A stretch of 64,000 nt of DNA from Scenedesmus sp. PABB004 (GCA_014905635.1 JABVCE010000029.1:62001-126000); one strand, 5' to 3'; numbered from the stretch's first letter, positions 16,306-64,000 are shown. The notes: generated from the sequence alone by a model not told the origin. Program-made: numbers and translations.

Positions 16306-17392
16306 TCAGCGCATGCGCTCCACCTGCTGCGACTGCTGCTCCGGGTTGCGCGCCTCGCGCCGGCCCTCGCGGATGCGCTCCAGCGCGGGCTTGAGGCTGA
16401 ACGTACGCTTGACCCACGCACCAAACCGCACTGGCGCGGCGCGGCGCGGCACGGCGCGGGACGGCGCGGTGAGCCGGCGCGGCCGGCCGGCCGCGCGCGG
16501 CGCGGCGGCCGCGCCGCGCGGCCCCCGCGCGCGCGCCGCGGGCGCTCACTCACCCTCGGGCGTGCGGACCTGCGCCACGAGCAGCTTGACGTTGCGCATG
16601 GGCAGCCAGTCGATGAGGCCCTGGCCCCACACGAGCGTGTTCTCATCGATCACGCCCTGCACCCAGCAGTCCTTGAGCACGTGCAGCGGGCAGGGGCCGC
16701 GCGGCACGCTCATGCGGTCCCTGCGCGCAGAGACGGCTGCGCGTGAGCGCAGGGCCCCGCGCACTCGGCAGTGCTTGCCGCCGCTGCTGCGGCCGCCGCC
16801 ACTGCCGCTGCTGCGGCCGCCGCCACTGCCGCTGCTGCGGCGGCCGCCGCCGCTGGCCCGCCGCTGGTGCTGCCACCGCTGCTGCGCCGCCCGGCGCCCG
16901 CGCCGCCTGGCGCGTGTCGCTGGGGCCGCCAGCGGCGGCTCACCGGTAGTACCAGATGTTTTTGCGCAGCAGCATGCGCTGGTAGTTGATCATCTCGTAC
17001 TGGTACGGGCTGAGCTTGATGCTGCGCGCCTTGGGCTTGAGCTTCTGGCTCCACGGCCCCGCCGGCCGCGCCGAGTCGACGGGGTGGGGCTGGGAGAAGT
17101 CGTAGATGTCGTCCAGCTCCAGCAGCTCCTTCGCGAGCGCCGACTCGGCCGCGAGCCGCGACGCCCGCAGCTCCGCCGCCGCCGCGCGCGCGCCCGCCTT
17201 GTCGGTGGGGCCCAAGCTGAGCTCCGCCAGGCCGGGCACGATCTCCGCGATGCGGGCGTCCATGGCCGCCGCGGCGCGGCCGCTCTGCGAGACCGCCACC
17301 GGCGCGCGGGCCCGGACCTTGTGCACGCGCACCTTGCGCAGGGCCTCGCCCTCCCCGGCCGGGCCGCCCCCGGGCGCGGCGGGGTCGGCCAT
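16306..17392 (-). CDS. TIC56: TIC56-like chloroplast translocon subunit (GYF_2-type domain); 3 exons
   Basis: KNIWYYR|DRMSVPRGPCPLHVLKDCWVQGVIDENTLVWGQGLIDWLPMRNV...PE|VRFGAWVKRTF. Confidence 0.75.
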
Positions 17393-29335: not shown

Positions 29336-32300
29336 ATGGCCACCGAGGGCGGCGGCGGCGGGGCCGGCGCGGGCAAGCGCCGCGCGCGCGAGGAGCGGCG
29401 CCGCGCCGCGCTCAAGGCGCGTGCGCGCGCCGAGAAGCGCGCGGCGACGCGCAGCGCGCAGGAGGGCGCGGAGATCGCGGAGCTGGAGGTGGCCATCGCG
29501 GCGGGCGCGCCGCCGCCGGGCAGCAACCCGCTCGCCGCGCCGGCGGCCGCCGCCGGTGCCGGCGGCGGGGCGAGCGGCGGCTACGCCGGCGCGCGGTCGT
29601 TTGACGACCTCCCCCTCAGCGCCTACACCAAGGCCGCGCTGCGCGGCGCGGGCTACACGACGCTGACGGCCATCCAGCGCGCGGCGCTGCCGCACGCGCT
29701 CGCGGGGCGCGACGTGCTCGGCGCCGCCAAGACGGGCAGCGGCAAGACGCTGGCCTTCCTCATCCCGGTGCGCGCGCGGGGTGCGGCGGCGCGTGGGCCG
29801 TGGGCGTGTGCGGTGTGTGCGTGGGGCTGGGCGCGCACAGGGCCGCCGCGGCCGCCGCGCGCGGCCGGCCGCGCGAGCTCGCCCGCACGCTCGCCCGCCC
29901 CGCGCCGCGGGGGCGCCGCCGCCAGGTGGTGGAGAAGCTCTACCGCCTCAGCTGGACGCGGCTCGACGGCCTCGGCGCGCTCGTGCTCACGCCGACGCGC
30001 GAGCTGGCGCTGCAGATCTTCGCCGAGCTCGTCAAGGTGCGGCGGCGCGCTGCGTGCTGCGTGTGCCGTGTGCTGCGTGTACCGTGCGAGTGTGCGCGTG
30101 TGTGTGTGCGCGACGCCAGCCGCCGCCGGGGCGGTGATGATCCGCAACAAATGGGTAATTTGCGTCGGCCGCCTGGCCGACACACTGCCATCTGACGCCC
30201 GTGGCTGCGGCTGCTGCTGGCGCGCGCGTGTGCTGTGCTGTGCTGCGTGTGGCTGTGGCTGCGCGGTGCCGGCGAGGATGCGAACACCCGACGTGACCCA
30301 ACGCTGAGCGTCAAAATTTTAGCTTTGTTTTAATTCCTGAGCCGTCGCCGCCGCCTGTTCCGTGCACGTGGGCTCGCGCGTGCTGCGTGCTGCGTTGCGC
30401 GTGCGTGGCGTGTGTCGCGCGCGGCCGCCGATGATGCAAAAGTCCACAGAAATCCAACGCTGAGTTCATTCAGTGAGGAGCGGACAAATACGAGCTTTTT
30501 AAATCTGACGGCGCCGCTGTCGCTGCTGCTGCTGTTGTTTCTGCTGCTGCCGCCGCGTGGGCGCGGCGCCCCGCCGCGGCGCGCGCCGACGCCGCCCCGC
30601 CCTCGCCCACGTGCGCGCGCGCGCTTGCAGGTCGGGCGGCGCCACGACCTCTCCGCGGGGCTGCTCATCGGCGGCAAGGACGTCGCGGAGGAGGCGAGCC
30701 GCGTCAACGCGATGAACATCCTCGTCGCCACGCCCGGTGCGGCCGCGGCGCGCCGCCGACGCGCGCGTCTTGCACCGCACCGCACCGCCCGCCGCGCCGC
30801 GCGCACGCGCGCCCACCCCGCCGCGCCCACCTGGCCCTCCTCCTCCTGCTCCGCCCGCCCCTCCCTCCCCGCGGCCAGGCCGTCTGCTGCAGCACATGGA
30901 CGAGACGCCCGGGTTTGACCCCGCGGGGCTGCAGCTGCTGGTGCTCGACGAGGCCGACCGCATCCTCGACATGGGCTTTGCCGCGACGCTCGACGCAATC
31001 CTGGCCAACCTCCCGCGCGACGGCCGGCAGACGCTGCTCTTCAGCGCGACGCAGGCGCGTGCGGCCGCGCGCCGGCGCGTGTGTTTGTGGGTGTGCGAGC
31101 GCGCGCGCGAGGGGCCGCCGCACGCCGCCGCGTCCCGCGCCTCACGCTCACCCTGCCGCGTCGTGCGCCGCGCAGACCAAGAGTGTGCGCGACCTCGCGC
31201 GCCTCAGCCTGAGCGCGCCGGAGTTCCTCGCCGTGCACAGCGACGCGGCGGCGCCGACGCCGCTGAAGCTGCGCCAGGCGGCGATGGTCGTGGGCCTCGG
31301 CGAGAAGGTCGACGTGCTGTGGGGGTTCATAAAGACCCACCTGTCGGCCAAGACCATCATCTTCCTCTCAACCTGCAAGCAGGCGCGCCCGCCCGCGCGC
31401 CCTCGCGCCGCCACGCGCGCCGCCCGCTCGTCCCGCGCCCGCCCCGCGCCGCGCGCGGCGCCCCGCGCTCACAGCAGCCCCCGCCACCGCCCCGCTCCCT
31501 CGCCGCTCGCCGCCGCCCTTCAGGTCCGCTTCATGCACGAGGCCTTCCGCAAGCTCCGCCCCGGCACGCCGCTGCGCGCGCTGCACGGCGGCATGAAGCA
31601 GGGCAAGCGCATGGCCGTGTTCGACGCCTTCAATGCGCGCCCCCGCCCCGGCGCGCCCGCCGCGTCGGGCGGCGGCGTGCTGTTTGCGACGGACGTCGCC
31701 GCGCGGGGGCTGGACTTCCCAGACGTCGACTGGGTCGTGCAGGCGGACTGCCCCGAGGACGTGGCCGCCTACATCCACAGGCGCGGCGCCCGCGGCGGCG
31801 GCGGCACCCGCGGCGGCGGCACCCGCGGCGGCGCCCGCGGCGGGGGGTGCACTGCTCGCTGCGCAGCGCCCGGCACCTGACGCCGCCGCCGCCGCCGCCC
31901 GCCGCCGCCGCGGGCGGGGCGCAGGGTCGGCCGCACCGCGCGCTACACGTCGTCGGGGCGCGCGCTGCTGCTGCTGCTGCCGAGCGAGCGCGACGCGATG
32001 CTGGCGCAGCTCGCGGACGCCAAGGTCCCGGTGTCGATGCTGCGCCACAACCCGGCCAAGGTCACGCCGGTCGGTCCGTCCTTGAGCGCGCTGCTGTCCA
32101 AGAACGCCGAGCTCAAGGCCTTTGCGCAGGCCGCGCTCGTCGCGTACGCGCGGTCCGTGTTCCTGCAGCCCAACAAGGCCGTCTTCAACGCGGCGGCGCT
32201 GCCGCTGGACGACTACGCGCAGAGCCTCGGGCTGCTCGCCGCGCCGCAGCTCAAGTTCCTGCGCCGCGCAGGCGCGCGCGTGGTCGGCGAGGTCGTGCTC

Positions 32301-33696
32301 GGCCGCGGCGCGGCCGGCGGCGCCGGCGGGGATGCAGGCGCCGGCGGCGACGGCGACGGGGCGCCGCGCGGCGGCGCGGGCGCGCTGGGCAAGCGCGCGC
32401 GCGCGGCGCCGGCGGGGGGCGAGCGGGAGCGGGGGTCGGGCAGCGAGAGCGAGCAGGAGGGCGGCGCGCGGCCGCAGCAGCGGCGGCGGCGCGGCAGCAG
32501 CAGCAGCAGCAGCGGCAGCGACAGCAGCGACGAGGGCAGCGAGGGCAGAGACGGCGAGCCGGAGCCGCCGGCCGCGCGGGCGAGCCGGGCAGCCGCGGGG
32601 CAGAAGCGCAGGGCGCCCGAGGCGCCGGCGGCAGCAGCGGCTGCCGCGGCGGCCGGCGGCGGCGGCGGCGGCAGCGATGGCGACGATGACGATGACGATG
32701 ACGGCGACGGCTTCCTGAAGCTCAAGCAGCGGGACGTCTTTGACGTCGCGCCCGGCGGCGGCAGCGGCAGCGGCAGCGACGACGACGCGCCCGACGAGTG
32801 CCGCCGCGGCGAGCCGCCCGACGACGGCGCGGCGGCGGCCGCCGCGGCCGCGGCCGCCGCCGCCGCGGCGCGGCCGAAGAAGCGGAAGAGGCAGCGCATC
32901 AAGCTCGGCGCGGTGAGCGGGCAGCGCACCGTGTTTGACGACGACGGCCGGCAGCTCGACCCGCTGGAGCTGCTCGCCGCGACCGGCCTCGGGCCCGACG
33001 GCGGCGGCGGCGCCGCGCCCGGCGCGGCCGGCGCGTCGGCGGCCGACGCGGACGGCCTGCACGTCGTCGCGTCGGCGCCGGGCGAGCGCTTCGAGGCGGC
33101 CGCGGCGCTCATGCGCGCGCGCGACCGCGCGGACAAGGCCGCCCAGGCGGCCGCGCGGCGCGCGGCGCGGCTGGAGAAGAAGATCAAGCGCCGCGCCGCG
33201 GCGCAGGTGCGGGCCGGCGGCGGCTGCCGCGCGCGCAGCCTGATCCGCCGAGCGCACCGCGCGCGCCGCCGACCCTGCGCGCCGCGCGCCGACCCCGCGC
33301 GCACTGCGCGCCAACCCCGCGCCGCAGGCCGAGGGCGCACCCGTGGCGATGCTCGGCGGCGGCCCCGGCAGCGACAGCGACGGCGACGGCGACCGTGGCG
33401 GTGCCGCCAGCGGCAGCGAGGACGGCGCCGGCGCCGGCGGCAGCGACAGCGGCGCCGCCGCCGCCGCGGAGCCGGACGCGGCCTACTGGGGCATGGCGCG
33501 GCGCTCGGGCGGCGGCGGCGCGCCCGCGGAGCAGCCGCCGGCGGCCGCGCGGCGCTCGGCCGGCGGCGGCGCGCCCGCGAAGCAGCCGCTGGCGGCCGCG
33601 CGGCCCCGCAAGGCCGCGGCGGCCGCAGCGCCCGCGCCCTCGCTGGCGGAGCAGGAGGCGCAGGCGCTGGCGCTTCTGAGCTCCCGGCCGTGGTGA
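29336..33696 (+). CDS. DDX10: DEAD-box RNA helicase DDX10/Dbp4 (RH32); 8 exons
   Basis: Q motif, [63 protein letters not shown]-terminal [13 protein letters not shown]. Confidence 0.93.
30129..30200 (+). ncRNA. Intronic box C/D snoRNA, U16/snR87-like
   Basis: Box C GTGATGA at 30134, box D CTGA at 30192, terminal stem gggcg/cgccc; TGGGTAATTTGCG is complementary to conserved 18S CGCAAAUUACCCA; D' box is degenerate. Confidence 0.8.
30270..30344 (+). ncRNA. Intronic box C/D snoRNA, putative 25S rRNA guide
   Basis: Degenerate box C (AGGATGC), box D CTGA at 30337, stem cggc/gccg; GCTTTGTTTTAATT is complementary to LSU AAUUAAAACAAAGC. Confidence 0.7.
30426..30513 (+). ncRNA. Intronic box C/D snoRNA, U36a/snR47-like
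   Basis: Box C ATGATG at 30431, D' CTGA at 30460, C' GTGAGGA, box D CTGA at 30505, stem cgccg/cggcg; TACGAGCTTTTTAA is complementary to 18S UUAAAAAGCUCGUA. Confidence 0.85.
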
Positions 33697-33738
33697 GCGG
33701 CCCGAACGGTCGGGGAGCTCACCTCGAGCTCGTCGTCA

Positions 33739-33743
33739 TGTAA
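33739..33743 (+). promoter_or_regulatory. TGTAA polyadenylation signal (DDX10)
   Basis: 43 nt after the stop codon. Confidence 0.55.
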
Positions 33744-40812: not shown

Positions 40813-42759
40813 CTACAGCCGTGCAGGGCCGTCGCCCGCCAGCCCCGCTGCGAGCAGCGCGGGGTCGCCCAGCGCGCCGATCATGTCGCCCGCGAGCGTG
40901 GCGCGCCCGCGGGCCGCAAACGTCGCCGCCGCCGCGGCGCGCATCGTCAGGCAGCCGCCGTACGCCGCCAGCATCAGCGGCGGCACCCCGCCTCGCGGCG
41001 CCTGCTGCTGCTGCTGCTGCTGCTGCTGCCCCTGCTCCCGCCGCGCCGCGGCGTTGACCCAGGATATGAACGTCGCGGTCGTGCCTGCGGCCGCGGCGCG
41101 CGCGCGCGCGTGAGCCCAGCGCGGCGCCGCCCGCCAGCGCCCCGCCCCTTGTACAAACGGCCCGCCGCGCGCGCCCGCGCACCAGTCAGCACGTCGCCCT
41201 GCCCGCCGCAGCGCCGCGGCGAGCCGTCGGCGGTGACGAGCAGCACGCGGGCGCCGTCGCTGATCACGTCCACCGGCCCCTTGGACAGCACGGCCGGGCC
41301 GCCCAGCGCCGCCGCGAGCGCCTGCGTCTGCGCGCGGGGCGCGGGCCGGCGGCGGCGTCGGGCTGCTGCGCCGCCGCCGCCGCCGCCCGACCGCGCAGGC
41401 CTCGCCCTGGCCCCGCCGCACCTGCTGCTGCCAGTGCGCGCCGATGCGGCCCGGCAGCTCCAGGCCCACCGCCGCGGCGAGGCGGCCAAACTCAGCGATG
41501 TTGGGCGTCAGCAGGCAGTTGGCGTAGCCGCGCACGGCCTGCGCGCGGCGCGGCGCGGCCAGCGCGCGCGCGAGGGTCGCGGCGGCGCCCCCGGGCGGGC
41601 CTCTGCCCGAGAGAGCGCCCGCGCCCGCTGCGGCAGGAGTGCGGCGGGGCGCCGGCCGCGCCGTGCGCGCCTGGGGCCGCGCCGCGATGAAGTTGAGGCC
41701 GCTGCCGTCGATGACCAGCGGCAGCCCCAGCGCCCGCGCCGCCGCGACGGCCTGGAACATGCACTCGCCCACCTGCGGGCGCCGCGCGGGCGCCCGCGGG
41801 CGGGCTGGCGGCTCGCGCGGCGCCCGCCCGCGCGGCGGCAGCGGCCCCCGCGGCGGCTGCGCTGTGGAGCTCGGTCTGCTGCCAGCCGGCCGGCGGGGCA
41901 GCCGCGGCCGCGCCTGCGGGTCGTCGCCCAGGCCGGGGCCGATGACAAGCGCGCTGAGCCGCCCCAGCCACGACTCCAGGTCGGCTGCGAGCCGCGCGCG
42001 CGCCGCGCCGGCCAGCTCGGCGCCCAGCTGCGCGGCGGCGCGCGGCGCGGCCGTGAGCGCGCGGGCGCGCGCGCCCGCGCCGCCGCCGCCGCCGCGCCAC
42101 TGCCGCCGCGCCACCGCCGCCGCCGCGCACCCCGGCCACGTGCTCGCTGTCCAGCAGGCTCGGCAGCACAATGAGCTCCGGGGAATAGGCCTTGATCACA
42201 GGCGCGGCGCCGGGCGTGCAAAACACGTACGCCAGGTCAGCGCCCATCTGCATGCGAACGGCGGCGGCGCGGGGTGGCGCGGGATGCGGCGGGCCCGAGC
42301 GACGCGCGGCGGCGCACGCCGCGACGCCTGCCGCGCACCCGCAGCGCCGACATGGCGGCGAAGAAGGGCGCGCCGGTGTACTCGCGGCAGCCGCCCACCA
42401 CGCCGACCTTGCCGGCCTGGCCCTTGTAGCCCGCGCCTGCGCCGCGCCGCGCGGCGTCGCGTGCGCTCGTGGCGCTGGCGGCGCGAGAGCCCCGTCGCCC
42501 GGCTGCCCGGTGCGCGCGGCGCGCTGCGCTCACCGTCCAGGCCTGGAACCACGGCGCGCAGCGCGGCCACCAGCTCCTCGTGCGGCGCGCAGCTGGCCAG
42601 CGGCGCCATCGCTGCCGCCGCCGGCGCTGCTGCCGACGCCGCCGCGCGGCGCCCGCCGCCGAGCAGCAGCAGCCGCGCGGCCCCCGCCCCCGGAGCGCCT
42701 GAGATGCTGGCGGCGCCGTGAAGGCGCGGCGCGGCGCGGCGCGCGGCGGCCAGGGCCAT
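40813..42759 (-). CDS. NAXD: ATP-dependent (S)-NAD(P)H-hydrate dehydratase; about 8 exons
   Basis: [70 protein letters not shown]. Confidence 0.93.
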
Positions 42760-54690: not shown

Positions 54691-55321
54691 CTACGACCGC
54701 GCGCCGGCGGGGAGCCGGATCAGCGACAGCTCCGCGCAGCACGCGGGCACGCCCTCGCTGACCTCCTGCGCGTAGGTCGCGTAGCCGAGCTGCGCGAGGT
54801 GCGCGAGCACGAGCGCGAGCGCCGCGGGCGTGCGCGGCGCGTCGGCCGCCATCGCGCCGAGCCAGCGGTCCAGCCAGCGCTTGAAGCCGTCAGACTTAGA
54901 TCGCGACACGCTGTCGTTGCCGCTCACGCGCACGTGCAGCTCGACCGCGAGCTCGGCCGGCAGGGTCGCGTCGCCGGGGCGCCACTCGGCGAGCAGCGGA
55001 TACTCATGGCCCTCCACGTCAATCTTCAGCAGGTCCACGCGCGCGTGGCCGAGCGACGCGGTGACGTTGGCCCAGCTGCGGTGGCCCCGCGCCGGCGCGC
55101 CGACGCACCAGCGGTGGAACGCGTGCCGCGGGCCGCGCGACGCGCCCGCGTACGTACAGTCCAGTGTGTGAACCTCGCACGGGGTCTTTTCGAGCATCGC
55201 GTCCTCAAACTGCCACAGCCCTGAGCGGCGCGAGCGGGGCGGCGGCGCGGGCGCAGGGGGTTGGCCCGCGCCACGGCGAGGGTGCCCGCGCCGGCGGACC
55301 GCGCCGGCCGCGCAGCGCGCC

Positions 55322-55356
<35 letters not shown>

Positions 55357-55822
55357 TACCTTTGCTGCCGAAGCTGTAGATCACGCAGCCGGGCCGCGAC
55401 AGCGCGCCGCCGGGGGCCGACACGTCGCAGAGCAGCTTGGAGCCGTCCTTCGTGCCGCCGTAGCGCGTGAGCGGCCGGCCGGGCGGGCACGACACGGCGG
55501 GCGCAAAGAGCGCCCACGTCGCCGGCGTCATGCCGTCGCCCGGCAGCGGGCCTGCGACCGCAAAGTGGGGCACCAGCGACGCGAGCAGCCCGGCGCGCCA
55601 GGCCGACAGGTTGGCCGCCGCCGCCGCCGCCCAGGCCGCGGGCGGGTCACGGGGCACGCCCATCATGCGCACGTAGCCGCGCGGCGGCCGCGCCCCCGCC
55701 AGCGCCGAGTGGCCCGCGGCCGCGACCAGCAGCAGGCCCGCCGCCGCCGCTGCCAGCCGCTGCCAGCCGCCAGCCGCTGCCAGCCGCGACCAGCGCTGCC
55801 AGCCGCGCCGCGGCGGCTCCAT
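54691..55822 (-). CDS. METTL24-like (Methyltransf_22/FkbM-type) SAM methyltransferase, type II membrane anchor; 2 exons
   Basis: RYGGTKDGSKLLC, CVIYSFGS, FED, CEVHTLD, LGHARVDLLKIDVEGHEY, ELAVELH, CCAELSL. Confidence 0.82.
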
Positions 55823-56200: not shown

Positions 56201-59200
56201 TCAGCGCCGCGACGGCGCGGCCGCCGCCTCGAGGCTCGCCGCGACCGCGGCCGGCTCCTTGCTCGGCACGTCGGCGAGGCCGAGCTGCTCGAGCAGGCGC
56301 TGCCAGCGCAGCGGCTCCTCGTCAAAGATGTACGTCATGGGCTGCACCAGCACGCCGCTGCCGCCGAGCTGCGCGCGCGCGCACGCAGCGGCGCGGCGGC
56401 GCGGCGCGGCGCGGCGCGGCGGCGCGGCGCGGCGCGGGCCGCGTCAGCGTCGTCGCGCGCGCTCTGCCGCCAGACGCTCAACCGCGCGCAGCGCCCCCGC
56501 GCAGCGGCGCCCACCGCGCAGCGCCCCGCACCTTCTGTATGGCCTTGACGCTGGGGTAGAGGTTTTTCTTGGCCACGCAGATGACGCAGGCGTAGAAGCC
56601 GTGCGTCGCCGCGGCGCCGCCGCTCGCGCCCGCGGCGAGGCTGTACACGGGCGAGATGGTGGGGCCCTGGGGGTGTGCGTGTGTGTGGGTGTGTGGGGGG
56701 GGGGGGGGGGAGGGTGTGAGGCGGGTCAGGGAGGGGTGGGCGAGGGAGGGGCAGGAGAGGGACTGCGTGCGCGGCGCTGTGCTGTGAGTGCGGGTGCTGC
56801 GCGTGGCGGTCCCCCACACCCACCCACTCACACACACACCCACACGCACCTGCAGGCCGCGCAGGCCCTCCTCGTTCATCAGCAGCGTCGCGACCTCCTC
56901 GGGGCTGCCGCCGCGCATGTTGGCGATCACTGCGCGCGGGGGGGGGGGGGGGGGGGGGGTGAGCGCGGGGGCGCCGCCGCCACGCACCCGGGCAGCCCGC
57001 CCGCGCGCGCGCGCCCGGCTCCGCTCAGAGCCCCCCCCCCCCCCCCCCCCTTCCCCCACACCCACCCACCCACACCCACCCACCCACCCACCCACCCACA
57101 CAGCCCCCTCCCTCCCTCCCTCACCCGAGTAGTACTGCTCCGCCTTGAGGTGCGCGTCGAGGCGCTCCAGCAGCTCGTGCAGCACCGGCAGCAGCTGCCC
57201 GGGGCGGTCGAGCAGCGCGCGCCGGTTGGCGACGAGCACGCCCTGGGAGTCGAGGATGCGGCCGCCCTCGATCTCACGCAGGTTGTTCTCCTTCAGCGTC
57301 ACGCCTGGCGCGTGGGGTTTAGAGAGGGTTCACAGGGTTTGAGTCAGTCAGAGGGCCGGGGCGGTTCAGGGGTTTTGGCGGCGGCGGTGCTGCGGGAGTC
57401 GCGCGGGGCGCGGGGCCGCGCGGGGCGCGGGGCCGCGCGGCGCCGCCGTGCGCTGCGTCCCCGTGCGAGCCCCGTCTCTGCCCCCTGAGCCCCGGCCCCC
57501 CTCTGCCCCGCGACCGCCGCCGCTATCCGCCGCCGCTGCCATTCAAACGCCGCCGTTGTCAGCCGCCGCCGCTGTCACCCGCCGCACCCGTTGAGACAAG
57601 GTCCAGGATGATGTCGGCGCAGCCCATCGCGGGCGCGGCCTCGAGCGCGCCGTCGGCGGTGAGCAGCGCGACGTGCTGGAAGCCGGCGCCGTCGAAGAAG
57701 CGCTTGGCGATCGCGTGGTAGCCTGGCCCCGGGGTTTAGGGGGGGTGTAGGGGGGTTACGTGTGTGTGTGGGGAGGGGGGTGACGGAGCGCGAGAGATGG
57801 AGCGCGGCAGCAGGAGGGCGGGGCGGAGGGAGGGAGGGAGAGGGAGCGAAAGAGAGAGAGAGAGAGGAGGCAGAGGTGCACGCGCGCCCCACGCAGCGCC
57901 CAGCGCGCACCCGTGACGACGCGCAGCGGCGTCTCCTCGGTCCAGCAGTCCATGTCGCGCAGCTGCTCCAGGCTGTCCACGCCCGCAAAGCGCCCGCCGC
58001 TGGGCACGCCGAGCGCGAGGTAGCAGTGCCCAAAGCCCAGCGCCTCGTGCACGACGACCAAGTCGCTGCGCGCAGGTGAGTGGGCGGGCGGGCACGCGGG
58101 TGGGTGGGCGCGTTGATTGGGGCGGGCGGCCGACTGCGCCCGCACGCGGCGGCGCGCCCGCGCTCGACATGCGCTGCCGCGCCTGCTCTCAAACCCATCT
58201 AAACCTCGGCCCCCGCGCCCGCGCCTAAACCGCCACAGCCCCGCCTAAACCGCCCGGGCCCCGCACCTGTCGCCGTCCCCGATCTCGCTGAACATGTCGT
58301 ACCCCACGATGCCGAGGTCGATGTCACCGAGGCGCAGCTTGCGCACGACGTCGCTCGCGCGCTGAAACCACACCTCCACGCCCGGGATCTGCGCGGCCGC
58401 GACCGCGGCGCGGGGGAGGAGGGGGTTGGGGGAGGGGGAGGAGGGAGGTTGGGAGAGGTATGGCAGCGGCGCGCGGGCGGCGAGCGAGCGAGCAAGGCGA
58501 GCGGGCGAGGTGGCGAGGGCGAGGTGGCGAGCGCAGGCGCGCCTGCGGGATCTTGGCGACGTACTGCCGCGGGTTGGGCTTGTACACCGACAGCGCGCAC
58601 TCCTGGGAGAGGGGGGGGGGAAGGGCGGCGTTGGGGCGGACCCCCCGGGGGTCGCGCTGCTGGCGGCGGCGGCGGGTGCGCTCGCCGAGCGCAGCCGCCC
58701 GTGATGGCGTGCGCGCTGCATTGGCCGCCGCGCGCGCCCCGCCGCCGGCACCGCCGCGCTGGTCGCAGCGCGGGCGCGGGCGCCGCCGCCGCTGCTGCGG
58801 GCGGGCACCCGCGGCCGCGGGCCGGCCGACGCTCGCGGCGGCGCACCTTGAGCAGCTGCATCGTGTCCTCCGCCATGCGGCCCTTGCTGGGCAGGCCCAG
58901 GCGGATGGAGTCCCGGGGGATGGGCTTGGGCAGCTTGGTGACTGCGCGGCGTGAGAGAGGGAGGCGCCGCGCTCGGTCGCGGCGCAGCTGCCGCGGCGGC
59001 CGCGGCGCGGCGCGGCGCGGCCGGCGCGCCCACCCGTGTGCACGTCATCGCGGCGGATGAGGCTGGCCGCCACCACGAGGCGCGCGGGGCCGCGCAGGGC
59101 CGCCTGGCGCGCGCTGGCGCCTCCCGCCCGGCCGCGCGGTGCTGCTGCCGCCCGCGCCGGCGCGCCCGCGCGGGGCGGCGCGGCCGCGGCCGCGCCGCGG

Positions 59201-59226
59201 GTCGCCTGCTGCTGCTTGAGCATCAT
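56201..59226 (-). CDS. HISN1: ATP phosphoribosyltransferase (long HisG), plastid-targeted
   Basis: [95 protein letters not shown]. Confidence 0.94.
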
Positions 59227-59545: not shown

Positions 59546-62500
59546 ATGGCGGCGGACGAGCACGCCATACCGCTGGACGGAGACGAAATGCCGAGCGTGA
59601 GCGGCGCCGCGCGGGGCCCAGGGCGGCCGGGGCCGGCCGCGGCGCGCCATCAGCGGCGGGCGGCGCAGCAGGGGGGCGTGCGGCGCCGCGCAGGCGCCCC
59701 GCCGGCGCGGGAGGGCGGTCGTAGCGGCCGCGCCGTGCGCTGGGACCGCGCTGGCGCCCGCGCCGGCGCCGGCGCCGGCAGCAGCGGCGGCCGCCGCGCC
59801 TTGACGCCGCCGCCGTGCGCCGCCGCCGCCGCGCGCAGGCGCAGGGGCAGGAGCAGGAGCAGCAGCAGCAGGCCCAGCAGCAGCAGGGCGACGGCGGCGA
59901 GCCGCCGCCGGGGCCGCCGCCACCGGCACCGCGCCCGCACCCGCCGGGCGACGGCCGGGTGCTGGTGCTGTTCGACCTCAACGGCGTGCTCACCGACCAC
60001 ACGCCGGCGCGCATGGAGGGGCGCTACATGGTGCGCCGCCACATCGTGCGGCCCCACATCGAGGCGCTGCTGCGCCTGCTCCCGCACTTCCGGCTCGGCG
60101 TGTTCAGCAGCGCGACGCGGCGCACCGTCAACGCCGCCCTCGGCACCATGCACGCGCGCCTGCGCGACGCCGCGGCCGCGAGCGGCATCGGTGCGCGGCG
60201 CGCGGCGCGGGGCGGCACGCGGCGCGCCGCACAGCATGCGCGCGCGGGCGACCGCCGCGACTCGCGCCGCCGCCGCCGCCGCCGCCGCCGCTGCGCAGAC
60301 CCGGGCGTGGTGCCGCCGGTGCACGCCATCTTCACCGTCATATGCGACCGCAGTGCCTGCCAGCCCGACCCCTTTGTGCGCCGCGCCGCGCGTCCTGCAA
60401 GCTCGCGCCGCGCGTCCTGCGAGCGCGCGCCGTGCGTCCTGCGAGCGCTGCCCTGCTCACCCGCGCCCGCGCGCGCGGCCTCCCCCGCGCGCCTGCGCAG
60501 TGGCAGTCGCGCGCGGACGGCAAGGAGTGGGACACCATCAAGCCCCTCGCGCGGCAGGGCTTTGACCTGGAGCGCACCATCCTGGTGAGGCCCGCCGCCG
60601 CGTGCGCACGCGGCGAGGGGCGGCGGCCTGCGTTTCGAACCGCGCCGCCGCCGCTGCTGCGTGTGTGTGTGTGTGCGTGCGTGCGTGCGCGCAGGTGGAC
60701 AACGATCACTACAAGAGCGCCGCGGGGGAGGAGGAGAGCATGCTGCTGGTGCCGCACTGGGAGCAGGAGCCCGGTGCGCAGCAGGCCGCGGCGCCGCCCG
60801 CTGCGTGCGTGCGTGCGTGGGCCCTAGCTCGCTCGCGCCCGCCCGCTCACGCGCGCGCGCCATGCGTGCGCGCCGCCGCCGCAGTGTCGGACCGCGACCT
60901 CCCGCTGCTCGTGGGGCTGCTGCTGTCGATGGTCAAGAACTGCACCGGTGAGCAGCGGCGGCGGCGGGGCCGGGGCGCAGCGCCGGGTGCGGCGCCCCGC
61001 GCCCGCGGCGCGCGTGCTCACGCGCGGGCGCGCGCGCCGCCGCAGGCGACGTGCGCCCGCACCTGGAGCCGCTGCGGCAGCAGCTGCTGCTGCTGCGCGC
61101 GCACGAGCTCGAGCCGCAGCCGGCGCTGGACGAGGCCGCCCTGCGCGCGCTGTGCGAGGCGGCGGCGGCGGCCGGGGCGCGCCCGACGCGCCCGGCGCGC
61201 CCCCCGGCGCCGCGTGGGAGGCGCGGCGCGCGCAGGAGGCGTCGCAGGCGGCCAACGCGCGGCTGCGGGGCCAGGTGTTCTGGGGCGTGCGCGTCGAGGC
61301 CGCCGGCGCGGCTCCGCCGCACGTGCAGCGCCTCGTCGCCGCGCTGGGCAGGCACAGCGCGGGCGCCGGCGGCGACGCGGCCGCGCCGCCGGCCGGCGGC
61401 GACGTGGACGTGGCCGCGCTGCTGGGCGGCAACGCGGCGGCGGCCGCGGCGGCGTACCGGCAGCACCAGCTGCACGCGCTGCTCGGCGCGGCGTGGGGCG
61501 CGGCGTTCAGCGCGCCCGCCGCGTTCAGCGACGCGCAGGTGCGCCAGCTCCTGCGCGCGCGCGGCCTGCCCGCGGCGCACGCTGCCGCGGTGCTTGATGT
61601 GATGCTGCGCCGAGGGGAGCTCGCGCACTGGCACCCCGGCTTTGGCCACGATCAGCTGCTCGCGCTGCACGGCCAGGCCGCGCCGGCGCCCGCCGACGGC
61701 GCGGCGCCCGCCGACGGCGCGGCGCCCGCCGACGGCGCGGCGCACGCCGACGGCGCGGCGCCGGCGAGTGGCGCGCCCGTCGCGTGGCCCTGGCCCGCGC
61801 CGCAGGGCCACTGGCCGGCCGCGCCGGCGGCCGCCGGCGCTGGCGGCGACCCGGCGCCCGGCGAGGCGCGCTTTGCGTGGGAGGGCTCGCTGCTCGTGCC
61901 GCAGCTGAACGTGCGCCGGCTCAAGACGGTCGGCAAGGCCGCGGCGAGCGTCGCGGCCGCGGTCGCGCGCGGGCCTGACGCCGTGTCGGCGGCGCTCGCG
62001 GGCTTTGGCGCGGCGCCGGTCGAGGCGGGCGGCGCGTACCCGCGCATGGACGCGGTCGCGAAGGCCAACCCGGTGCTCGCGGACTGGCGCACGCTGATGC
62101 AGCTGGCCATCCGGGACCTGATGCTCAACACGCGCGGCGTCACGCGGGCCCAGGTCGCCGCGTTCGTCGGCGGCCTCGCGCCCGGCGTCGCGGCGCAGCT
62201 GCTCGGCGGCGCCGGCGCGACGCCCGAGGCGCAGGCGGCGCGGCTGCGCGAGCTGCTCGCCGCGCTGGCGGCGCAGGCGCAGCCGGCGCAGCCGGACAGC
62301 CTCGCGGCGACGGCGGCGGCGGTCGTGGCTACGCTGGGCCACCAGCAGCAGCAGGCCAAGCAGGCGCCCGCGCTGGGGCTGCTGGTGGAGCCGTGCCAGG
62401 CGCCGGTGGTGCAGGCCGGCGGGGGCCAGCAGCAGCGCGACCGGCCGGCGCCCGGCGGCCTCGACCCGGCGGCGGGCGACGCGGCGGCGGCGCTCTGCCG

Positions 62501-62848
62501 CTTCTGCGTCAGTGTCGTACCCAGCGCGGCCGCGGTGGAGCAGTCGCTCGCGGTGCTGGCCTCAGCGGCCGCCGCCGCGGCGGCGGCAGCGGCAGGCACC
62601 GCCGACGCTGGCGCGCTCTTGGAGGAGCTGCGGCGGCAGCTCGCAGAGCCGGTGCTGCCCGTGCTCGCGCCTGCCGAGCCGGACGGCGGCGCGGTGGCGC
62701 TCAACGTGCCGTGCGAGGCGCTGCCCTGGCTACAGAAGCAGCACGAGCAGGCGCTCGAGCGCAAGCGGCGGCGCGAGCAGCAGGCGGCGGAGCAGGCCGG
62801 CGCGGGCGAGCAGCAGGAGCCGCAGGAGTCGCAGCAGCAGGAGGGGGC

Positions 62849-62919
<71 letters not shown>

Positions 62920-64000
62920 GGCAGGATCAGCAGCAGTCGGTGGATCAGGGCAGCCGCAAGAAGCGGCGAGGCGGCGAGGCAGGCCTGCAGCAGCAGCAGC
63001 CGGAGCAGAACGCGGCAGCGGCCGCCGAGGCGGGCGGCAAGAAGCGCAAGCGCGCGGTGGCCGACCCGTCGGCTGACCATCTGGCGGAGTCGCTCCTGGG
63101 CGAGCTGTACGACGCTGACGAGGCGGCACGCGCGGCGGCGGGCGGCGCCGATGGCACCGGCGCCGACGGCGGCGAGCCGGGCTCCAGCGACGACGACGAC
63201 GATGGCGGCGACCGCGACGGCAATGACAGCAGCAGCGGCGACTTTGACGACGGGCGGCACGACAGCCAGCTGCAGCTTGGCGTGCACGGCATGGACGAGC
63301 TGTCCAGCAGCGACGACGGCAGCGACGATGACGACAAGGAGGAGGGCGGCTTTGACCCCGGCACCGACGACGACCGCGGCGGCGCCGAGCCCGCGGCCCC
63401 GGGCGCGGCATCACCGCCGGCCGCTGGTGCCACCTGCCGGGCGCGCAGCCGCTGCACGGCGAGCTCGCGGCCGCGGTCGCCGCGCTCGCGGCGGAGGGCG
63501 GCCGCGACGCCGGCGCCGCGGGCGCCGCGCCGACGGCGCTGCACGGCGAGATCCTGCGCTTCGCCGCCGCCGCCGCGCCGACGGCCGCGGAGCGCCTGGT
63601 GCTGGGCTGCGCGATGCAGCAGCTGCAGGCCGCCGCGCAGCAGCTCTGGCCCAGCGCCGAGGCCGTGCTCTTTGGCTCCCAGGTGAGACGGCGGCGCAGG
63701 CCCGGCCCAGCACACGGCGCTGGGTGCACAGCGCACAGCGTGGCTGCGCGCGCCCGCTGGCCGCACCCGCTGACCGCGCCGCCGCCGCGCCCGCAGGCGT
63801 CCGGGCTGGCGCTGCCGGCGAGCGACCTGGACGTGGTGCTGCTTGGCACGCCCTGCCCCAGCCCCGGCCGCGGCGCGGCGGAGGGCTTCTCCACCAAGCA
63901 GCGCGCCAAGATCCGCACCCTGCTGCTCGACCTGCGCAAGGCGCTGCGGCGGTGCGCCGCGCCGCGCGCTGCGCAGCCAGCGCCGCGGCTGCCCGCCCGC
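59546..64000 (+). CDS. NIF/FCP1-like HAD domain protein apparently fused to a TRF4/PAP2-like nucleotidyltransferase; runs off window; two apparent frameshifts
   Basis: VLVLFDLNGVL, VRPHIEALL, GVFSSA, IKPL, TIL|VDNDHYK; later LHGEILRF...LWPSAEAVLFGSQ|ASGLALPASDLDVVL. Confidence 0.7.
62851..62917 (+). repeat. (CAG)n poly-Gln tract
   Basis: About 22 CAG units in the coding frame. Confidence 0.9.

Follow-up and report, generated by a model that had tools for sequence, protein, structure and literature searches.

The stretch of Scenedesmus sp. PABB004 DNA analysed here (64,000 nucleotides; the window) ends inside a gene that begins at 59546 on the plus strand and is defined by homology, splice sites, and codon periodicity. 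Its domain order is NIF (an FCP/SCP-type HAD domain), a 2.2-kb open middle, and the beginning of a Pol-beta nucleotidyltransferase, cut at 64000. On balance, positions 59546-64000 are best explained as part of one nuclear gene of a very GC-rich green alga, of which they hold the first ~1,200 codons. Sequence comparison identifies it as a long-linker, ordinary member of a chlorophyte-wide family. An earlier, sequence-only reading of this DNA had proposed one gene joining a NIF-type phosphatase to a TRF4-like transferase, and had suggested an RNA 3'-end heal-and-tail enzyme.

The features, with the evidence for each, are these (P numbers denote proteins, and L numbers loci on metagenome contigs):

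59546..59596, + strand: exon 1 with the start codon (MAADEHAIPLDGDEMPS); sequence, periodicity in frame mod3=2, N-terminal likeness by eye.
59839..60190, + strand: exon 2, 5' end uncertain, with NIF motifs I and II; tblastn (P0002, E 5e-32; P0001, E 8e-27).
60299..60375, + strand: exon 3, NIF domain (..HAIFTVICDRSACQPDPF); GT..AG borders, stop-free splice, alignment to P0002.
60501..60584, + strand: exon 4, with the NIF motif III lysine; tblastn, splicing, motif.
60695..60773, + strand: exon 5, NIF motif IV and LLVPHWE; tblastn, splicing, motif.
60885..60947, + strand: exon 6, C-terminal helix of the NIF domain (SDRDLPLLVGLLLSMVKNCT); tblastn, splicing.
61046..61200, + strand: first part of exon 7 in frame mod3=1, with the NIF end (GDVRPHL, 61048-61065) and variable linker; tblastn, periodicity, splicing.
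61180..61210, + strand: frame change 1, mod3=1 to 0, at the C6 run 61200-61205; third-position GC periodicity.
61209..63400, + strand: middle region in frame mod3=0; open frame, strong coding periodicity, relatives found by HMMER.
63390..63440, + strand: frame change 2, mod3=0 to 2, near the C4 run 63397-63400; third-position GC periodicity.
63431..63682, + strand: transferase exon A (LHGEILRF..APTAAE..LWP..LFGSQ), start of the Trf4-like palm; weak Pfam matches, collinear with P0007, P0009, and P0004.
63683..63796, + strand: intron of 114 nucleotides, GTGAGA..CAG, splitting the hG[GS]/DxD signature; sequence, GC flat at all three codon positions.
63797..64000, + strand: transferase exon B, continuing past the window end, ASGLALPASDLD with two metal-binding aspartates; tblastn (P0001, E 2e-12, 59% identity).

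The window is 72-85% G+C throughout and has open frames in all six frames, so openness of an open reading frame (ORF) is by itself no evidence for a gene. Chance is excluded by the homology of relatives to the window, with tblastn E values down to 5e-32. These searches placed NIF exons at 59950-60192, 60299-60372, 60501-60587, 60695-60776, 60885-60950, and 61046 onward, and a transferase exon at 63794-63946. The NIF domain is thus spread over six exons, whose five internal introns are all GT..AG and 98-125 nucleotides long. The spliced NIF product is free of stops and 65% identical to the Scenedesmus protein P0002 over 191 residues. Codon composition tells the same story: the coding frames have third-position GC of 0.9-1.0 with second-position GC far lower, and this pattern goes flat within introns. 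The start codon is the ATG at 59546, followed by an N-terminus (MAADEHAIPLDGDE) that looks by eye like those of P0002 and P0004. The first intron has its donor (GTGAGC) at 59597 and 18 in-frame AG acceptor candidates. Microsatellite-like runs, (TG)n and (TGCG)n, lie within introns of this gene at 60655-60690 and 60805-60820.

The linker between the two domains is ~750 residues in the window, where it includes a partly conserved, putatively helical part, and ~150 in the intron-poor, picoalga-like forms. Most of it is the middle region (about 61209-63400), one open exon whose conserved part spans 61263-62594. The sequence-only reading had listed poly-Q, two signals resembling nuclear localisation signals (NLS), and acidic tracts here, and all are found on the plus strand: 23 glutamines at 62850-62918; the basic NLS-like patches GSRKKRR (62949-62969) and GKKRKR (63036-63053); and acidic tracts within 63189-63335, including D-runs at 63189-63203 and 63324-63335. 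Basic patches recur in the linkers of the short forms, with their position conserved. An 18-nucleotide tandem repeat at 61686-61739 encodes APADGA three times; P0007 and P0009 lack the repeat there.

A HMMER search of the middle region against 1.84 billion representatives gave three matches in total: P0007 (E 9e-13, residues 19-462), P0009 (E 9e-4), and P0008. The last was discounted as a low-complexity, Q-rich match. P0007 and P0009 are partial models, and both run from the NIF end (GDVRPHL, the motif that opens P0007) through the middle to PSRLHAELLQFASAAAP...LFGSQ, collinear with the window. A word-index search with P0007 was dominated by low-complexity words and returned P0007 itself and P0009. 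A ten-sequence global alignment was set aside, since it placed the window's middle wrongly, against the NIF regions of full-length proteins. No Pfam family was found in the middle region beyond noise at E up to 10, and an ESM Atlas search with it gave no usable match. The AlphaFold2 (AF2) model of the region, from a three-sequence alignment, had a mean predicted local distance difference test score (pLDDT) of 34 and was unusable; winged-helix-like segments picked out by eye at 61524-61622 and 62133-62177 were set aside as unsupported.

Might a NIF phosphatase gene and a neighbouring transferase gene simply have been read together? At 80% GC, chance alone opens long stretches in each of the six reading frames, and gene models can merge neighbours. 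Indeed the Picochlorum model P0052 (1435 residues) appears to join the NIF-transferase gene to a neighbouring indolepyruvate decarboxylase, after which it is named; P0052 and a second Picochlorum model, P0070 (1147 residues), both exceed the transcript-supported length of 820 residues. Conversely, in Scenedesmus the model P0002 covers the NIF part and goes no further. Model-free evidence was therefore sought in metagenome contigs.

Two NIF peptide patterns, run against those contigs, picked out 32 loci; 15 of these have a Trf4-like transferase downstream on the strand that carries NIF. About ten of the other 17 end too soon after the NIF match. The remainder have other architectures: an ABC-type ATPase (L011, L016), a stand-alone 309-codon ORF (L031, L032), and the less clear layouts of L006, L008, and L023. 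Most telling are L005, L007, L009, L022, and L027, five intron-poor loci in which both domains lie in one uninterrupted stop-to-stop ORF of 910-1022 codons. Pfam searches with four of these ORFs found, all above cutoff, NIF (31.9-36.1 bits), MTPAP-like_central, NTP_transf_2, PAP_assoc, and Cauli_VI.

Database proteins agree. The first NIF exon, searched among longer proteins, gave six matches. Three of them also carry transferase families in Pfam: the gene models from Micractinium (P0004, 1922 residues), Chlorella sp. A99 (P0005, 1481 residues), and Hariotina (P0001, 998 residues). Models from Chlamydomonas eustigma (P0042) and Tetraselmis striata (P0043) have the same domain order. A profile built from the four ORFs matched 27 proteins at E 1e-10 or better. 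Transferase families are present in 25 of them, and precomputed annotation gives both NIF and transferase families for 19 of the 27. The six transferase-bearing matches without precomputed NIF do contain NIF motifs, and two of them (P0043 and P0044) reach the NIF cutoff on rescanning. A transcript-derived ORF from MMETSP (P0032, 'type:complete', 820 residues) holds NIF plus three transferase families and shares a 90% cluster with KAI8109669.1 of Picochlorum sp. BPE23. Named members come from Picochlorum, Chlorella, Micractinium, Hariotina, Scenedesmus, Chlamydomonas eustigma, and Tetraselmis striata; the search for NIF plus transferase and PAP_assoc in chlorophytes, which the sequence-only reading had recommended, uncovers a family found across green algae.

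In the window itself, the middle frame (60828-63686) is open for 952 codons and has its first methionine only at about 61596; neither a stop nor an ATG-initiated restart is seen between the NIF and transferase parts within the window frames. This agrees with the earlier observation that no gene end or new start separates the domains. Because P0007 and P0009 bridge the NIF end, the middle, and the transferase start collinearly with the window, and because relatives hold both domains in single ORFs, the fusion is, by these comparisons, genuine. Its conservation reaches from intron-poor forms with short linkers to core chlorophytes with long ones. The two-gene reading is contradicted for the family on the same grounds, and as an account of the window it is extremely improbable. 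For annotation, this means that models merging the two domains are right to do so, and that a split model like the 434-residue one from Scenedesmus is truncated.

The sequence-only reading had called for two frame changes, and third-position GC periodicity locates both: from mod3=1 to 0 near 61180-61210, and from 0 to 2 near 63400. Each falls in variable linker at a short C run. For the first change there are 96 in-frame GT/GC-AG pairs, of which those listed all use GC donors of poor form. Sixteen GT-AG pairs were rejected: they delete residues conserved in P0001, P0002, and P0007, or use an out-of-frame reading. For the second change there are eight GT-AG pairs. The only plausible one (63282-63448, 167 nucleotides) was also rejected: the stretch is coding-like (third-position GC 0.93, second-position GC 0.40) and acidic, and the cut falls inside the conserved LQLG[VIM][HT], which reads LQLGVH in the window, LQLGMH in Hariotina, and LQLGIT in P0007 and P0009.

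The frame changes are probably assembly indels, likely of a single base at the C runs; unusual splicing is an unlikely cause. A further alternative is that the family is real and the window copy is a pseudogene, the frame changes being genuine single-base lesions. Two changes within 2.3 kb and the want of a convincing intron at either would fit decay. Against this, all three frames are open with strong third-position GC periodicity right up to each switch, and the catalytic and structural motifs seen in the window are all intact. Moreover, both flanks of each switch are collinear with homologues, and short C runs in poorly conserved linker are a typical place for assembly indels in 80% GC DNA. 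A pseudogene is accordingly improbable, and we continue with assembly indels as the preferred reading. A Pfam scan of 36 other ORFs in the window, intended as a gauge of the frameshift rate, gave few and short domain hits.

The NIF domain carries four motifs in the window: I, FDLNGVL (59971-59991, with DLNGV at 59974-59988); II, GVFSSAT (60097-60117); III, WDTIKPL (60528-60548); and IV, VDND (60695-60706). The DxN variant of motif I had been singled out earlier, and it is indeed there. Throughout the family motif I is D-x-N-G-[VT], unlike the standard D-x-D-x-[TV] of NIF phosphatases. Asparagine two residues after the nucleophile (Asp+2) is invariant in 26 of 26 aligned sequences. Likewise it is present in 23 of the 33 proteins checked, the remaining ten being without that N-terminal part; aspartate occurs there in none. 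Also invariant in the 26-sequence alignment are the nucleophile Asp, the motif II serine (S63), the motif III lysine (K117), and the motif IV aspartate (D132). Because these residues are kept alongside an invariant asparagine, the pocket seems to be under selection.

Several comparisons place the domain. Pfam NIF (PF03031, gathering cutoff 21.8 bits) scores the relatives at 22.3-47.7 bits, and P0002 at 36.4 bits. All 30 ESM Atlas feature matches are NIF clusters. The best sequence match to a solved structure is UBLCP1, at a marginal E of 0.037, with the family's asparagine aligned to the second aspartate of UBLCP1 DIDYT. An AF2 model of the NIF domain of L005, a relative rather than the window copy, was built from the 26-sequence alignment and has a pLDDT of 83.1. 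Foldseek with this model returned CTDNEP1 at the top (E 2e-8), with Scp1/2/3, TIM50, UBLCP1, and Fcp1; KdsC-type HAD enzymes come next with far weaker scores, and no polynucleotide 3'-phosphatase is among the matches listed. HAD_SAK_2 scores are 13.3-21.5 bits, below the cutoff of 27.5. The domain is therefore, as modelled, a capless FCP/SCP-type (NIF) HAD fold.

Asp+2 is usually described as the general acid/base of HAD phosphatases. In Scp1 the equivalent residue, Asp98, assists the nucleophilic step, according to the relevant passages of PMC7281111. The substitution argues against efficient hydrolysis of any phosphomonoester, phosphoserine and RNA 3'-phosphate alike.

The D-x-N-G NIF subtype turns up in other settings. 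In one ABC_ATPase-class protein (L011:1862-4597, L016:5891-8629, P0045) it appears as LILFDLNGVLVH, inserted between the P-loop domain and MRB1590_C; the Pfam order is ABC_N, ABC_ATPase, NIF, MRB1590_C, making this a second, unrelated fusion partner. In P0046 (630 residues; cluster mate P0069) a NIF domain with D-L-N-G-T occupies residues 402-566 after an AAA_33 kinase-like region (26.3 bits, cutoff 27), a layout that recalls kinase-phosphatase end-healing enzymes. In one low-GC (43%) lineage of the NIF-transferase family (L027:9944-12673, P0027-P0031, P0033) an RRM_1 domain is inserted inside NIF, between motifs II and III.

The transferase signature opens with LFGSQ at 63668-63682. The 114-nucleotide GT..AG intron at 63683-63796 follows, and then ASGLALPASDLD at 63797-63832. 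After splicing, the Pol-beta signature, hG[GS] then D-x-D, is present in the window. The string that the sequence-only reading had given, FGS-x-A-x-G-L-x-L-P-x-S-D-L-D, is thus found as a spliced product; it is not contiguous in the DNA. The family motif is FGSQAxGLALPGxDLD, a pattern matched in 20 of the 33 proteins scanned. The ORF piece containing exon A has weak Pfam matches to NTP_transf_2 (19.6 bits) and MTPAP-like_central (18.3 bits). In relatives the third aspartate motif is VDIS[LMFI]G, and PAP_assoc is above cutoff.

That the transferase is TRF4-like, as first suggested, is strongly upheld. A search of the PDB with the family profile, built from relatives, found yeast Trf4 (3nyb_A) at E 9e-30, followed by URT1 (6.5e-12), GLD-2 (8.7e-11), and Cid1 (about 1e-7), with CutA and TUT7 also present; all are weaker than Trf4. 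By sequence, then, the enzyme is of Trf4/TENT4 type, nearer to Trf4 than it is to GLD-2 or the uridylyltransferases. P0038 carries the name 'non-canonical poly(A) RNA polymerase PAPD5/7' in one source. In the short forms the C-terminal domain is Cauli_VI, the N-terminal hybrid-binding domain of RNase H1, which matches structures 6vrd and 3bsu. A further motif, AVEAQW..(R/K)GQ[HYF], lies near the extreme C-terminus in short- to long-linker forms (the L005, L007, L009, and L027 ORFs; P0004, P0005, P0035-P0041), and has no family match in the Pfam scans run.

What might such a protein do? On balance we favour a nuclear Trf4-like tailing enzyme with a phosphate-recognising NIF module, for targeting or regulation, aimed at a phosphoprotein. 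The Trf4-like enzyme would add short 3' tails (oligoadenylation) that mark RNAs for decay or processing. The NIF module would recognise phosphate on a phosphoprotein, for which the carboxyl-terminal domain (CTD) of RNA polymerase II (Pol II) is the obvious candidate; with asparagine at Asp+2, it would do so with slow or no turnover, and not as an RNA 3'-phosphatase. A nuclear location is suggested by the conserved position of the basic patches in the linker.

For the NIF module taken alone, the leading candidate, held tentatively, is that it binds a phosphoprotein or dephosphorylates one slowly, the Pol II CTD being the obvious target. A purely structural role with no phospho-ligand is unlikely, action on RNA ends somewhat less likely still, and action on pyrophosphate or nucleotides the least likely. 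The phosphoprotein reading is favoured because of family and fold, because the hybrid-binding domain hints at work on the DNA template, and because yeast offers a precedent: there the CTD-interacting domain (CID) of Nrd1 couples Trf4 to recognition of the Pol II CTD (PMC4186968). The sequence-only reading had offered two possibilities, Pol II CTD binding and 3'-phosphate removal; the first is the more plausible, as a conjecture from sequence and fold, and the second is unsupported.

Several observations tell against this overall picture. Tested exon by exon, the window copy falls below Pfam cutoffs in both domains: its NIF exons score 11.6-15.3 bits (exon 2, 15.3), and its transferase piece is likewise sub-threshold. 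The window ends inside the transferase, and the third catalytic aspartate and PAP_assoc are seen in relatives only. Neither frame change is bridged by a good intron, and the copy could be a pseudogene. Pfam scans detected no hybrid-binding domain in the long-linker forms closest to the window. Finally, the other contexts of the D-x-N-G subtype (the ABC_ATPase/MRB1590-like protein, the sub-threshold AAA_33, the inserted RRM) point to RNA or nucleotides at least as much as to Pol II.

One alternative is healing and tailing, in which NIF would remove a 3'-phosphate (or other blocking phosphate) from RNA and the transferase would tail the freed 3'-OH. Every lineage seen has the NIF domain on one chain with an enzyme of RNA 3' ends, and L027-type proteins have an RRM inside that domain. 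In P0046 the subtype adjoins the sub-threshold kinase-like region, which recalls polynucleotide kinase-phosphatases, and HAD_SAK_2, the HAD domain of RNA-repair proteins, reaches sub-threshold scores. The ends of macromolecules can serve as substrates for capless HAD domains, and a phosphatase joined to a transferase has a precedent in the bacterial CCA-adding enzyme with its HD domain. Yet Pfam, ESM Atlas, and Foldseek all group this NIF domain with FCP/SCP protein phosphatases and TIM50, with no polynucleotide phosphatase among the Foldseek matches listed. Asparagine in all members at the position of Scp1 Asp98 (PMC7281111, in part) should slow phosphomonoester hydrolysis, and healing gains nothing from it, since it disfavours phosphoserine and RNA 3'-phosphate hydrolysis alike. 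The healing half of the earlier proposal accordingly finds little favour, and heal-and-tail as a whole is improbable.

Could the substitution instead suit a different substrate? NIF might act not on a phosphoprotein or a 3'-phosphate but on pyrophosphate, a nucleotide, RNA 5'-polyphosphate, or some other phosphoanhydride or small molecule, substrates whose leaving group needs no acid catalyst. HAD enzymes with a residue other than Asp at +2 do handle good leaving groups; here the asparagine is invariant alongside a conserved nucleophile Asp, Lys, Ser, and metal-binding Asp, and the fusion partners (transferase, ABC-type ATPase, kinase-like region) all use nucleotides. Set against these points, the domain has no cap to enclose a small substrate, and its structural neighbours are capless protein phosphatases. 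We consider this alternative quite improbable, and retain the phosphoprotein-directed module as the preferred reading.

A bolder version of that reading would merge three functions: a phospho-CTD 'reader' (an SCP-type domain frozen by Asp-to-Asn), Trf4-type tailing, and, in compact forms, RNase H1-type hybrid binding. This is doubtful. If true, co-transcriptional surveillance would be self-contained in one enzyme, which would detect Pol II that has stalled or is forming R-loops and tail the nascent RNA for decay; in yeast the same work takes Nrd1-Nab3-Sen1 plus TRAMP.

How does the family compare with known systems? Its best solved relative is yeast Trf4 (Pap2), the TRAMP poly(A) polymerase, with its metazoan TENT4 (PAPD5/7) counterparts. 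Likeness extends to the hG[GS]..D-x-D signature in the window, the third aspartate and PAP_assoc in relatives, and basic NLS-like patches that fit a nuclear enzyme. To our knowledge, Trf4/TENT4 proteins carry no HAD/NIF domain, hybrid-binding domain, or RRM. In yeast the link from Trf4 to CTD recognition runs instead through a separate protein, Nrd1 (PMC4186968, in part). The FCP/SCP phosphatases (Scp1-3/CTDSP, CTDNEP1, UBLCP1, Fcp1) and the non-catalytic TIM50 share Pfam NIF, fold, and motifs II-IV with the algal domain, which differs in its D-x-N-G-[VT] motif I, its marginal sequence likeness, and its fusion to an RNA enzyme.

T4 Pnk/PNKP and the HD domain of the CCA-adding enzyme are end-healing phosphatases tied to RNA or DNA end chemistry. 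Both are alike in concept only: a phosphatase-type domain and a 3'-OH-requiring enzyme in one polypeptide. T4 Pnk/PNKP shares the HAD superfamily as well. It belongs to another HAD subfamily, its D-x-D-G-T is not kept in the algal proteins, and it is not among the Foldseek matches listed. The HD domain of the CCA-adding enzyme has an unrelated fold.

Among green-algal non-canonical transferases, the closest company is Chlamydomonas MUT68 and the 13 groups of chlorophyte class-II RNA nucleotidyltransferases, including TRF4, MUT68, and PAP2-PAP11, set out in the main text of PMC5727444. The word 'phosphatase' does not occur in that main text, from which no correspondence between the present family and any of the 13 groups was apparent; its members may figure in the supplementary table, named there as PAP or TRF4. 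PMC12026948 presents MUT68 as a uridylating enzyme and compares it with HESO1.

A full-text literature search found no paper joining FCP1-homology/NIF with a terminal nucleotidyltransferase, in keeping with the earlier remark that this architecture is not a characterised family, and none on asparagine at Asp+2 in the FCP/SCP family. Members are already public in databases as hypothetical or 'FCP1 homology domain-containing' proteins, the latter being the UniRef name of the C. eustigma member. What we rate as new is a Trf4-type enzyme with an unprecedented accessory domain.

Non-canonical tailing enzymes are usually recruited via separate adaptors; here a putative phosphate-recognising domain is on the same chain, across an algal phylum. 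Should NIF read or remove phosphate on Pol II or another protein, the green lineage would have a direct, testable connection from transcription state to RNA decay. Action on RNA ends would instead make NIF the first FCP/SCP family member directed at RNA. In either case the family offers a natural experiment on an Asp+2-to-Asn HAD domain, tractable in Picochlorum, Chlorella, and Chlamydomonas relatives.

Upstream of the gene, on the minus strand at 56481-59222, the HisG profile is matched twice below threshold (16 and 18.5 bits, cutoff 25.5), at profile positions 1-26 and 114-156. These matches suggest a divergently transcribed, multi-exon ATP phosphoribosyltransferase gene at about 56.5-59.2 kb, which would fit a 5' end of the NIF-transferase gene near 59.3-59.5 kb. 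Elsewhere in the window, Pfam matches are to GYF_2 (16549-16989, minus strand, 40.8 bits); the C-terminal extension of SPB4-like rRNA helicases (31881-33740, plus strand, 44 bits); Carb_kinase / NAD(P)H-hydrate dehydratase (40816-42195, minus strand, 29.5 bits); and an FkbM-type methyltransferase (54694-55380, minus strand, 25.6 bits).

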